Below are positions 39,275 to 42,525 of a stretch of DNA of 64,000 nt, one piece after another. Position numbers and translations under genes: made by a program. Under the pieces are notes generated by a model. The model was not told the origin of the DNA. It saw only the letters and a list, made by a program, of their open reading frames with translations, and made no database searches. Each line of letters begins with the position of its first letter. The first letter of the stretch is position 1. This DNA comes from Escherichia coli. GTDB taxonomy: Bacteria; Pseudomonadota; Gammaproteobacteria; Enterobacterales; Enterobacteriaceae. The stretch is from NCBI RefSeq assembly GCF_003334405.1, contig NZ_QOWM01000004.1. One strand, written 5' to 3'.

Positions 39275-41122
39275 ATGTTGCTTAATATGATGTGTGGTCG
39301 TCGGCTGTCGGCAATCAGTTTGTGCCTGGCCGTAACATTCGCTCCACTGTTCAATGCGCAGGCCGATGAGCCTGAAGTAATCCCTGGCGACAGCCCGGTG
39401 GCTGTCAGTGAACAGGGCGAGGCACTGCCGCAGGCGCAAGCCACGGCAATAATGGCGGGGATCCAGCCATTGCCTGAAGGTGCGGCAGAAAAAGCCCGCA
39501 CGCAAATCGAATCTCAATTACCCGCAGGTTACAAGCCGGTTTATCTTAACCAGCTTCAACTGTTGTATGCCGCACGCGATATGCAACCCATGTGGGAAAA
39601 CCGTGATGCTGTTAAAGCCTTCCAGCAACAGCTGGCAGAGGTGGCGATTGCCGGTTTCCAGCCGCAGTTTAATAAATGGGTAGAGTTACTGACCGATCCT
39701 GGTGTTAACGGGATGGCACGCGACGTGGTGCTCTCTGATGCGATGATGGGCTATCTCCATTTCATTGCAAATATTCCGGTCAAAGGCACTCGCTGGCTAT
39801 ATAGCAGTAAACCTTATGCACTTGCAACGCCGCCGCTCTCGGTGATTAACCAATGGCAGCTGGCGCTGGATAAAGGTCAATTGCCTACGTTTGTTGCAGG
39901 ACTGGCACCGCAGCATCCGCAATATGCGGCGATGCATGAATCGTTACTGGCCTTACTCTGTGACACCAAACCGTGGCCCCAACTGACCGGCAAAGCAACG
40001 TTGCGCCCAGGGCAGTGGAGTAACGACGTACCGGCGTTGCGCGAAATATTGCAACGCACAGGCATGTTGGACGGGGGGCCGAAAATTACTCTACCTGGCG
40101 ATGACACGCCAACTGACGCGGTAGTCAGCCCATCCGCTGTTACTGTTGAAACAGCAGAAACTAAGCCGATGGATAAGCAAACGACGTCTCGTAGTAAACC
40201 TGCGCCTGCCGTTCGCGCCGCCTACGATAATGAACTGGTGGAAGCCGTTAAACGTTTTCAGGCATGGCAAGGATTGGGGGCAGATGGTGCTATTGGCCCG
40301 GCAACACGTGACTGGTTAAACGTAACGCCCGCCCAGCGTGCTGGCGTGTTGGCTCTCAACATCCAGCGATTGCGCTTGCTGCCAACAGAGCTTTCTACCG
40401 GGATCATGGTTAACATTCCGGCCTATTCGCTGGTCTACTATCAGAACGGCAATCAGGTGCTGGATTCGCGAGTCATTGTCGGTCGCCCCGATCGCAAAAC
40501 GCCGATGATGAGCAGTGCCCTTAACAACGTAGTGGTAAACCCGCCGTGGAACGTACCTCCAACTCTGGCACGCAAAGATATTCTGCCAAAAGTGCGCAAC
40601 GATCCGGGATATCTCGAAAGCCATGGCTATACGGTGATGCGCGGCTGGAACAGCAGAGAAGCGATTGACCCATGGCAGGTTGACTGGTCTACAATCACGG
40701 CCTCGAATTTACCGTTCCGCTTCCAGCAGGCTCCAGGCCCACGGAACTCGCTGGGGCGCTATAAATTCAATATGCCGAGTTCAGAGGCCATTTATTTGCA
40801 TGACACGCCGAACCACAATCTGTTCAAGCGTGATACACGCGCATTGAGCTCAGGCTGTGTACGAGTGAATAAAGCTTCCGATCTGGCGAATATGCTGTTG
40901 CAGGATGCAGGCTGGAATGACAAACGTATTTCTGATGCGCTGAAGCAGGGTGATACACGTTACGTCAATATTCGGCAGTCGATTCCGGTGAATCTCTACT
41001 ACCTGACGGCCTTTGTTGGTGCAGATGGTCGTACCCAGTATCGTACAGATATTTACAATTATGATCTGCCTGCGCGATCCAGCTCGCAAATCGTATCGAA
41101 AGCGGAACAATTAATCAGGTAA
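39275..41122 (+). CDS. ldtD: L,D-transpeptidase LdtD (YcbB)
   Basis: ORF 615 aa with signal peptide, [35 protein letters not shown]...; C-terminal YkuD-type domain ([11 protein letters not shown]...SSGCVR). Confidence 0.93.
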
Positions 41123-41302
41123 ATGAAGTAGTTCGGGGAAATCAGTTGTCGTAATAATTAGCATGATTGGGGGCGATTCTCTGCAGCCCCCGTCACTGCT
41201 GGGGTTGAGTCATCTTGACGTCTGCTTTACGGGCGGTTAAGGTGCCTCTTGTGCGCCAGAAGTGCATATAAACGATAACATTGACCTGTAGACTTGATTA
41301 TC

Positions 41303-41851
41303 ATGGACAAATTCGACGCTAATCGCCGCAAATTGCTGGCGCTTGGTGGCGTTGCACTCGGTGCCGCCATCCTGCCGACCCCTGCGTTTGCAACACTCTC
41401 TACCCCACGCCCGCGCATTTTGACACTCAATAATCTTCATACCGGAGAGTCAATCAAAGCGGAGTTTTTCGATGGCAGAGGCTATATTCAGGAAGAATTG
41501 GCAAAACTTAACCATTTTTTCCGCGATTACCGCGCGAACAAAATAAAGTCCATCGACCCAGGATTATTCGACCAGTTGTATCGCCTGCAAGGGTTGTTAG
41601 GCACGCGCAAACCGGTGCAACTCATTTCCGGTTATCGTTCTATTGATACCAACAATGAACTACGCGCCCGCAGCCGTGGAGTAGCGAAGAAAAGCTATCA
41701 CACTAAAGGCCAGGCGATGGATTTCCATATTGAAGGTATCGCGTTAAGCAATATTCGCAAAGCCGCGTTATCTATGCGCGCAGGTGGTGTAGGATATTAT
41801 CCACGTAGTAACTTTGTGCATATTGATACCGGGCCAGCACGGCACTGGTAG
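41303..41851 (+). CDS. mepK: peptidoglycan L,D-endopeptidase MepK (YcbK; DUF882 / peptidase M15-like) with Tat signal
   Basis: ATG at 41303 gives 182 aa MDKFDANRRKLLALGGVALGAAILPTPAFA (twin-arginine motif RRKLLAL); track ORF adds 3 codons. Confidence 0.88.
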   Translation: MDKFDANRRKLLALGGVALGAAILPTPAFATLSTPRPRILTLNNLHTGESIKAEFFDGRGYIQEELAKLNHFFRDYRANKIKSIDPGLFDQLYRLQGLLGTRKPVQLISGYRSIDTNNELRARSRGVAKKSYHTKGQAMDFHIEGIALSNIRKAALSMRAGGVGYYPRSNFVHIDTGPARHW

Positions 41852-41877
41852 TAATTGCTTAACGAAACAGGGGCAGT

Positions 41878-42525
41878 ATGAACTATCGTATTATTCCGGT
41901 CACCGCATTCTCCCAGAACTGTTCATTAATCTGGTGTGAACAAACCCGTCTGGCCGCACTGGTCGATCCTGGCGGCGATGCGGAAAAAATCAAACAGGAA
42001 GTTGATGACAGCGGCCTGACACTGATGCAGATCCTGCTGACGCATGGTCATCTGGACCACGTTGGCGCAGCGGCGGAACTGGCGCAACATTACGGCGTGC
42101 CGGTTTTCGGCCCGGAAAAAGAAGATGAGTTCTGGCTGCAAGGCTTGCCTGCGCAAAGTCGTATGTTTGGTCTGGAAGAGTGCCAGCCGCTGACGCCAGA
42201 TCGTTGGCTGAACGAAGGCGATACCATCAGCATAGGGAATGTGACTTTACAGGTGTTACATTGCCCTGGGCATACGCCGGGTCATGTCGTGTTTTTTGAT
42301 GATCGGGCAAAGCTGCTGATTTCTGGCGATGTTATTTTCAAAGGCGGAGTAGGGCGCAGTGACTTCCCGCGTGGCGATCATAATCAACTGATTTCTTCAA
42401 TCAAAGATAAATTGCTGCCACTGGGGGATGACGTGATATTTATTCCGGGTCACGGACCATTATCCACACTTGGTTATGAACGCCTGCATAATCCCTTCCT
42501 GCAAGACGAAATGCCCGTCTGGTAA
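41878..42525 (+). CDS. gloC: hydroxyacylglutathione hydrolase GloC (metallo-beta-lactamase fold)
   Basis: ORF 215 aa, [42 protein letters not shown]...[10 protein letters not shown] (HxHxDH motif). Confidence 0.93.

Follow-up and report, generated by a model that had tools for sequence, protein, structure and literature searches.

In the window, i.e. the whole 64,000-nucleotide stretch of Escherichia coli DNA that we analysed, ldtD (ycbB; 39275-41122), mepK (ycbK; 41303-41851) and gloC (ycbL; 41878-42525) lie in a row on the plus strand, with a spacer of exactly 180 bp (41123-41302) between the first two genes and a gap of 26 bp between the last two. RefSeq annotates the same three genes, and together with matches to curated profiles this bore out the gene order and identities proposed in the initial annotation, as well as the spacer length it gave. 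The spacer is counted to the annotated mepK start, the ATG at 41303; the in-frame TTG at 41294 that the open reading frame list used as the start differs from this and was not adopted. The locus is the same as b0925-b0927 of E. coli K-12 MG1655 (ldtD/ycbB, mepK/ycbK and gloC/ycbL), with 100% identity to E. coli chromosomes (MG1655 coordinate = window position + 940995). Gene order, spacer length, published start sites and transcription units correspond one-to-one with MG1655, with no substantive difference. The genes and transcription layout of the locus are already known; the pairing is real and the finding is an ordinary one.

LdtD (615 aa) is an L,D-transpeptidase, which aligned over residues 1-615 with positions 1-617 of the NCBIfam equivalog NF007891 (1201.4 bits; cut-off 425) and contains the catalytic-cysteine motif of YkuD domains, S-x-G-C-[IV]-R, as SSGCVR (residues 525-530, window 40847-40864). 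According to the literature, it makes mDAP-mDAP 3-3 crosslinks. MepK (182 aa) is a Tat-exported M15/DUF882 peptidoglycan L,D-endopeptidase. It scored 274.9 bits against the equivalog NF053624 (cut-off 185), and the Pfam domains PF05951 and PF08291 were found on a protein 99% identical to it. The M15/LAS zinc motifs H133-x6-D140 and H173-x-D175 are both present, and all four of these residues are invariant in 12 Enterobacterales sequences. Residues 7-12 form a twin-arginine motif, N-R-R-K-L-L (RRKLL at 8-12), followed by a hydrophobic stretch ending in AFA; Tat dependence of MepK has been reported for Salmonella (PMC8262268). Secondary papers describe MepK as an endopeptidase specific for 3-3 crosslinks. 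A PDB sequence search found no MepK relative with a solved structure. A fusion of MepK with a transpeptidase or GloC domain (a 'Rosetta stone') was considered and rejected, as BLASTP against LdtD and GloC found nothing. Long proteins (350-730 aa) make up 31 of the 150 MepK representatives, and in these Pfam and NCBIfam gave M15 domains only, the rest being a low-complexity tail.

The third gene encodes GloC (215 aa), a glyoxalase II of the metallo-beta-lactamase fold, with matches to the core domain of that fold and the metal motif H-x-H-x-D-H in the form HGHLDH (residues 56-61). We rejected its assignment as the hydroxyacylglutathione hydrolase GloB, because it scored 110.3 bits against the GloB equivalog TIGR03413, below the cut-off of 200.8, and RefSeq names it GloC, i.e. 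the paralogue. Downstream of gloC lies a GC hairpin, GCCCGC-N7-GCGGGC (42537-42559), which the terminator scan lists on the minus strand and which is likely to be a terminator region shared by gloC and convergent transcription. It is flanked by an A run and by T-rich sequence.

Published start sites assign these genes to two units. Upstream of ldtD there are start sites at 39159 and 39268 (MG1655 980154 and 980263; Cho et al. 2014, tables S4 and S6), both attributed to a unit of ycbB alone (PMC3923258). ycbK-ycbL is listed as one unit, to which both of the start sites in the spacer are attributed (PMC3923258). The SMRT-Cappable-seq supplementary data contain no entry for ldtD, mepK or gloC.

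The main mepK-gloC promoter, P2 (41215-41251, plus strand), has the -35 element TTGACG (41215-41220), a 17-nt gap, the -10 element TAAGGT (41238-41243) and a start at G 41251. This start site (MG1655 982246) was seen with 367 reads under exponential, stationary and glutamine conditions, and it has sigma70 and sigma38 ChIP binding in addition to a motif (PMC3923258). The TTGAC of the -35 element and the T-A-x-x-G-T of the -10 element were invariant in 66/66 species, whereas the 17 nt that separate them vary. The leader of the P2 transcript runs for 52 nt to the mepK ATG. Its 5' end is predicted, from the minimum-free-energy fold, to form a small stem-loop, UGUGCGC-CAGAA-GUGCAUA (41250-41268, plus strand), whose core of 4 pairs is kept with one-sided G-C/G-U changes only; this is weak evidence, hinting that the stem-loop may have a role there.

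The other promoter in the spacer, P1 (41127-41160, plus strand), falls within a block (41123-41155) that is conserved in 66 enterobacterial species. Its -35 element is AGTAGTT (41127-41133) and its -10 element GTCGTA (41148-41153), and the start, A 41160, sits 6 nt after TCGTA, within the 5-7 nt expected of a sigmaE-dependent promoter. Canonical sigmaE promoters, e.g. rpoE P2, degP and rpoH P3, have the form GGAACTT-N16-TCAAA. P1 is a poor match to this consensus (AGTAGTT instead of GGAACTT, TCGTA instead of TCAAA, and elements 15 nt apart, one fewer than the canonical 16); the E. coli and Salmonella versions, AGTAGTT-N15-TCGTA and GAAGTT-N15-TCCTAA, both matched weakly under an ad hoc scoring scheme. 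The start site (MG1655 982155) was seen in a single data set, with 15 reads, in heat shock only and with an N/E motif, and sigmaE ChIP binding was not seen there in that study (PMC3923258). The locus resembles sigmaE-regulon units of E. coli and Salmonella in that its heat-shock-only start site is preceded by a conserved block containing a -10-like GTCxxA element; ycbK-ycbL has also been named as sigmaE-induced in several studies, and Salmonella 14028s has a sigmaE ChIP-seq peak at ycbK (1045188-1045261). P1 differs from the canonical promoters in its -35 element, which is degenerate in E. coli, its 15-nt spacing and its site upstream of a terminator-like hairpin, and mepK-gloC differs from other sigmaE-regulon units in being transcribed mostly from a separate sigma70/sigmaS promoter. 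We read P1 as most likely a weak sigmaE-type promoter that responds to stress and is placed immediately behind the ldtD stop codon. A site upstream of a presumed terminator is awkward if P1 serves to express mepK. The text of one sigmaE regulon paper (PMC1312014) does not mention ycbK.

The best match of our sigmaE motif scan lay inside ldtD (GGAACTC-N16-TTCAAT, 40743-40771) and was rejected as a promoter: the matching bases vary at synonymous positions (CGG/CGC/AGA and TTC/TTT) in 70+ species, i.e. only the protein is conserved, and the scan gave ~46 equally good matches in the 128 kb scanned.

Between the two promoters lies a GC-rich, terminator-like hairpin (41168-41192, plus strand). Its core consists of the arms gggggc (41169-41174) and gccccc (41186-41191) around an 11-nt loop. 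The hairpin reported in the initial annotation at 41171..41193 therefore exists, at a true position 2 nt further upstream (41169-41191), and the lack of a T-tract was described correctly, the E. coli tail being GTCACTGC. The structure is beyond chance and has been kept across Enterobacteriaceae. The spacer folded with z = -4.4 relative to shuffles, and in an alignment of 66 species double-sided changes occurred at 7/7 hairpin pairs. Double-change cells numbered 60, compared with 23.7 in shuffles, and the covariation score was 0.287 against 0.169, with 0/500 shuffles as high in either case; 75.8% of the hairpin alignment cells were paired. When 77 species were folded one by one, the best stem in the hairpin segment had a median length of 8 pairs, and there were 68 distinct 5' arms. 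Most species have A-rich sequence 5' and T-rich sequence 3' of the stem, and the 8-nt tail after the stem has at least 4 T in 29/77 species and at least 3 T in 43/77.

Because its pairs covary and T-rich sequence follows it in many relatives, we consider the hairpin most likely to be a leaky intrinsic terminator of ldtD that has lost its T tract in E. coli. It is like known Rho-independent terminators in being a GC-rich stem-loop soon after a stop codon with compensatory changes and, in many relatives, A-rich and T-rich flanks. It is unlike them in that the E. coli copy has an 11-nt loop and no U tract directly 3' of the stem; the terminator scan of the window did not call it. The hairpin might instead act chiefly at the 5' end of the P1 transcript, either as a stabilising stem-loop or as an attenuator of the sigmaE promoter. 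Such a role would suit its location at +9 to +33 from the P1 start site, and in E. coli, as in a Citrobacter relative (L074), a longer stem of 16-19 pairs, taking in the P1 5' end, can form. We think it rather unlikely to be the chief role, given that the A-rich 5' and T-rich 3' flanks of most species are those of intrinsic terminators and that P1 is a very minor start site. A role in the P1 transcript and a role as the ldtD terminator are compatible with each other. A third candidate, a 3'UTR-derived small RNA comprising the block 41123-41155 and the hairpin, was not favoured because a promoter with a mapped start site explains the block better; in addition, E. coli has no U tail and an Rfam search of the spacer gave no match at E ≤ 1. 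Overall, the description that suits the hairpin best is that of a conserved terminator-like element between two promoters.

The neighbouring positions of a 3-3 crosslink synthase and its hydrolase, to which the initial annotation had drawn attention, are real. The ldtD-mepK adjacency was present in 5422/5426 complete E. coli genomes and in 77/77 enterobacterial species representatives with ldtD in view, and the ldtD-mepK-gloC order, whose conservation across Enterobacteriaceae had been put forward as a check, was kept in all 77 species loci. Within this family, however, the entire mukB-ldtD-mepK-gloC-aspC-ompF order is frozen, and within-family conservation is therefore not specific to the ldtD-mepK pair. 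No paper among those searched deals with the adjacency itself.

The distant lineages, sampled at 42-56% MepK identity, are more informative about whether the two genes are neighbours merely through inherited synteny of the mukB-ompF block. Such an adjacency without functional meaning would account for the frozen order and would agree with the separate regulation of ldtD and mepK. However, mepK is immediately preceded, on the same strand, by a YcbB-type L,D-transpeptidase gene in 6/10 informative distant lineages (L081, L082, L087/88, L090, L092 and L094), and in five of these six the flanking genes are unrelated and mukB is absent; the sixth keeps mukB. Published genetics and biochemistry also connect the LdtD and MepK activities. 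We therefore regard synteny alone as an improbable explanation. The distant pairs share with E. coli the same two families (YcbB-type and DUF882), in the same order and on the same strand. They differ in their gaps, which range from 35 to 290 bp, in that gloC is directly next only in L081 and L095, and in the long low-complexity C-terminal tail of the L092 MepK. The transpeptidase-MepK pair is an old, conserved gene pair that extends well beyond Enterobacterales, and the pairing would fit the opposing actions of LdtD and MepK on 3-3 crosslinks.

The two genes also respond differently to regulators. In stationary phase, loss of rpoS lowered the log2 array signal of ldtD from 12.5 to 7.0 (~45-fold down), whereas mepK rose from 8.7 to 11.9 and gloC from 8.1 to 10.9 (~7-9-fold up), although many neighbouring genes also rose in the rpoS mutant. 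In wild-type stationary phase the ldtD signal was ~14-fold above that of mepK, a comparison that depends on probe behaviour. Induction of sigmaE raised ycbK and ycbL 9.7x and 6.6x, with ycbB absent from the listing of that unit (PMC2731931), and ldtD belongs to the Cpx regulon (PMC12729407). A single operon would have no internal promoter and its genes would co-vary; in this locus, start sites at 41160 and 41251 each lie behind a conserved promoter block, the changes in the rpoS mutant are opposite, and the sigmaE listing lacks ycbB. The idea that ldtD, mepK and gloC form one operon, with mepK expressed mainly by read-through and the T-less hairpin serving in RNA stability or processing, is very improbable: the shared strand, the hairpin without a T tract that the terminator scan did not call and the operon-like transpeptidase-mepK gaps of only 35-87 bp in some distant lineages speak for it, but the spacer start sites (367 reads at 41251), the promoter hexamers invariant across 66 species, the opposite rpoS responses with the ~14-fold difference in signal, and the sigmaE induction of ycbK-ycbL in a listing without ycbB all argue against it.

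With start sites in the spacer and separate regulation, ldtD and mepK are therefore uncoupled. Any co-expression of the two genes implied by the initial annotation was not supported: they belong to separate units, respond in opposite directions to loss of rpoS, and fall in the Cpx and sigmaE regulons respectively. Of the two outcomes that it had named as telling against it, separate and differently regulated transcripts were found and loss of the adjacency in close relatives was not. The question of co-transcription that it left open is answered, by published genome-scale data together with conservation, in favour of separate transcription.

Our reading of the locus, to which we assign a probability of about 80%, is that ldtD and mepK-gloC are two neighbouring but separate units, independently regulated, with the hairpin, P1 and P2 acting as proposed. 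ldtD would be monocistronic, transcribed from its own upstream starts at 39159 and 39268 under the Cpx and RpoS control described in published work, and its transcript would meet the GC-rich hairpin (41168-41192) ~50 nt past the stop codon and terminate there leakily, so that some read-through from ldtD into mepK may occur. mepK-gloC would be bicistronic and started inside the 180-bp spacer from two promoters: (i) P2 (TTGACG-17-TAAGGT, start 41251), which would act as the housekeeping sigma70/sigmaS promoter, and (ii) P1 (start 41160, heat shock only), the most likely source of the published sigmaE induction of ycbK-ycbL.

A more speculative proposal, which we hold to be unlikely, is that the genes for the YcbB-type transpeptidase and MepK belong together as an ancient make/cut module for 3-3 crosslinks, kept across Proteobacteria, in which the conserved, leaky terminator is a dosage coupler. 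Under strong ldtD induction (by Cpx, RpoS or beta-lactam bypass), mepK would rise in step through a fixed read-through fraction, its independent baseline would be set by the internal sigma70 and sigmaE promoters, and the odd position of the sigmaE-type promoter ahead of the hairpin would add a second layer of attenuation.

Returning to the two independent units, their wiring can be read from existing data sets and opens nothing new; the comparative additions made here are modest, i.e. the occurrence of the pair beyond Enterobacterales, the covarying hairpin and the deep conservation of both internal promoters. The 3-3 crosslinks made by LdtD let E. coli bypass its penicillin-binding proteins, and growth in this way needs an L,D-endopeptidase such as MepK. 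As bypass growth needs both activities, the wiring of ldtD and mepK bears on beta-lactam tolerance, and that wiring is independent, with Cpx and RpoS for the synthase and sigma70/sigmaS and sigmaE for the hydrolase.

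A 3.7-kb query over the region matched all 5426 complete E. coli genomes, in one piece in 5422 of them, and the matching E. coli region is annotated in RefSeq as mukB, ldtD, mepK and gloC. An ORF listing and curated family models agreed on the gene calls: ldtD (39275-41122, 615 aa; NF007891, 1201 bits against a cut-off of 425), mepK (41303-41851, ATG start, 182 aa; NF053624, 275 bits against 185) and gloC (41878-42525, 215 aa; metallo-beta-lactamase-fold matches), whose product scores under the GloB equivalog cut-off, in line with the GloC paralogue. LdtD contains an SSGCVR motif, MepK an RRKLL twin-arginine signal and the zinc motifs H-x6-D and H-x-D, and GloC an HGHLDH motif. 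Exactly 180 bp (41123-41302) separate ldtD from mepK, and gloC starts after a further gap of 26 bp behind mepK. The order of ldtD, 180-bp spacer, mepK and gloC proposed in the initial annotation is thus confirmed by ORFs, family models and RefSeq; the locus is the known E. coli K-12 b0925-b0927, and all three proteins have already been characterised. A REP-type repeat lies 3' of gloC (42583-42665; Rfam ES036/CssrF, 53 bits against a gathering score of 37.6), adjoined by a weak naRNA4 match on the minus strand (42583-42619).

Separate control of ldtD is already established, and the mepK-gloC unit, its sigmaE induction and the start sites are likewise in published data. In stationary-phase arrays of wild type and an rpoS mutant (PMC3923258), log2 levels of ldtD fell from 12.5 to 7.0 in the mutant, those of mepK rose from 8.7 to 11.9 and those of gloC from 8.1 to 10.9; the authors themselves gave ycbB (ldtD) versus ycbK/ycbL (mepK/gloC) as an example of opposite responses. 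The same study lists ldtD as a single-gene unit with its own start sites at 39159 and 39268, and a recent review counts ldtD among the Cpx regulon genes (PMC12729407). Co-transcription of ldtD and mepK, left undecided from the sequence, is contradicted by the opposite rpoS-mutant responses and by the presence of ldtD in the Cpx regulon, i.e. the transcripts are separate and differently regulated. The mepK array signal in wild-type stationary phase was also ∼14-fold below the high ldtD signal, which suggests that the junction is effectively insulated, although probe effects limit this argument.

The genome-wide start sites of Cho et al. 2014 (PMC3923258), published with 50 nt of upstream sequence, were placed on the window using an offset of 940995, and the spacer was compared in an alignment of 66 distinct spacers, in which the conserved blocks were sharply bounded. 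Start site 982246 (41251, G; 367 reads from exponential, stationary and glutamine cultures) was assigned to unit ycbK;ycbL and has sigma70 and sigma38 ChIP binding plus motif (PMC3923258). It falls 8 nt past TAAGGT, whose T-A-x-x-G-T (41238-41243) is invariant and follows the TTGACG hexamer (TTGAC, 41215-41219, invariant) after 17 variable nucleotides; TTGACG-17-TAAGGT is therefore the main promoter, P2, giving mepK a leader of 52 nt. Further conserved blocks are GTGCGC...GTGCAT (41251-41267) and the 18 nt preceding the mepK ATG (41285-41302; CCTGTAGACyTGATTATC), which are near-invariant in 66 species despite containing no Shine-Dalgarno-like sequence and may be a translational control site for mepK. 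The sRNA SdsR has been reported to lower MepK (PMC10954441). Minor published start sites just inside mepK (41305, 41311, 41324 and 41490; MG1655 982300-982485; 6-57 reads) were assigned to ycbL alone.

Immediately 3' of the ldtD stop codon, the first conserved block (41123-41155) ends in GTCGTA, 6 nt before start site 982155 (41160, A; 15 reads, heat shock only), for which the authors report an upstream sigmaE (and sigma54) motif (PMC3923258). Its -35 element (AGTAGTT in E. coli, GAAGTT in Salmonella) is separated by 15 nt from a -10 element, GTCxxA. Because the match to consensus is poor, we only infer that this block is a weak sigmaE-type promoter, P1; such a promoter fits the induction of ycbK-ycbL by sigmaE (9.7- and 6.6-fold; PMC2731931) and the sigmaE ChIP-seq peak at ycbK in Salmonella (PMC4577112). 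To the published start sites our analysis adds that both internal promoters, P1 and P2, are deeply conserved.

The GC hairpin gggggc-N11-gccccc noted in the spacer exists, but lies at 41169-41191, 2 nt from where it had been placed; direct reading of the window bears out its lack of a T tract. The 180-nt spacer RNA folds at -67.2 kcal/mol against -49.9 for shuffles (z = -4.4), and an Rfam search of the spacer returned no family match. The hairpin stretch has the lowest sequence conservation in the spacer; its sequence drifts across species and its stem is kept, with arms GGGGGC/GCCCCC in E. coli, ACGGGGC/GCCCCGT in Citrobacter, ACGGGCC/GGCCCGT in Kosakonia, GCCAGCC/GGCTGGC in Kluyvera and GCGTAAAAA/TTTTTACGC in Mangrovibacter. 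Counted on the alignment, both-sided changes occur at all 7 pairs, with 60 double-change cells against 23.7 in shuffles and a covariation score of 0.287 against 0.169 (0/500 shuffles as high), and pairing drops when the 3' partner is slid. When the segment from the first conserved block to the -35 was folded alone for each of 77 species, the median best stem had 8 pairs and the 5' arm took 68 different sequences; in the 8 nt after the stem, four or more T occurred in 29 species and three or more in 43. An A-rich 5' flank is also present in many relatives, and the E. coli stem is extendable to 16 pairs. The analysis adds a covarying, terminator-like structure to this locus. Stem, flank and tail have the layout of a weak intrinsic terminator ending ldtD, of which E. 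coli has lost the T tract. That the P1 stress promoter sits upstream of this hairpin is puzzling.

The locus was fetched for 80 species representatives, all of them Enterobacteriaceae apart from one Serratia and one Yersinia. The order mukB-ldtD-mepK-gloC-aspC(-)-ompF(-) was kept in every locus with enough flank, i.e. 77/77 with ldtD in view, so the order ldtD-mepK-gloC holds across Enterobacteriaceae. As the whole mukB-ompF block is frozen there, this conservation is uninformative about the ldtD-mepK pair. Spacer length was 167-188 nt in 65 of 76 measurable loci and reached 231-394 nt in a small group that includes Salmonella, Klebsiella and Yersinia (loci L012, L018, L065, L066-L069, L075, L080); where the sequence was inspected, the additional nucleotides fall within the mepK leader, 3' of the conserved promoter blocks. 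The leaders of Salmonella, Klebsiella and Shimwellia are longer by an insertion of ∼50-215 nt that separates the P2 5' stem-loop from the conserved pre-ATG block, with the promoter and hairpin blocks upstream retained; the Yersinia spacer (L080, 261 nt) is more diverged in layout. In two E. coli strains from Galapagos wastewater, an IS4 element separates mukB from ldtD (locus L093, NZ_CM129861.1, 550-1896; window gap ∼39015-39274), inside or just 5' of the ldtD promoter region, which could change ldtD expression in those strains.

A search across 1.84 billion representatives supplied a sample of distant MepK relatives (42-56% identity), whose contigs were inspected. Among the best 150 MepK cluster representatives, 31 were 350-730 aa long (e.g. 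P0148, P0158, P0165); the N-terminal domain exceeded the MepK equivalog cut-off in 7/7 long representatives checked, and in the two sequences inspected (loci L086 and L092) it was followed by a long Ala/Pro/Ser/Thr-rich low-complexity tail without a family match. MepK is directly followed by a GloC homologue in L081 and L095, and in L082 the GloC homologue is 3 kb away; a cytoplasmic glyoxalase II homologue and Tat-exported MepK are adjacent in two or more distant lineages and close to each other in a third. Leaving out two further contigs that were too short, 10 distant loci were informative. In six (L081, L082, L087/88, L090, L092, the long-tailed MepK, and L094) a YcbB-type gene, recognised by its Scaffold, PG_binding_1 and YkuD domains or by matching LdtD in tblastn, lies immediately 5' of MepK on the same strand. 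The others have an aminotransferase (L083/84), an unknown gene (L085), an EAL phosphodiesterase (L086) or a lipoamide dehydrogenase (L095) in that position. Of the six, only L081 keeps mukB, the remaining five having unrelated neighbours, e.g. imelysin genes, spermidine synthase/ptsP or gyrA. Six of 10 is far more than chance would give for a single family; the transpeptidase-MepK pair is therefore a conserved gene neighbourhood, and our analysis adds that it reaches beyond Enterobacterales.
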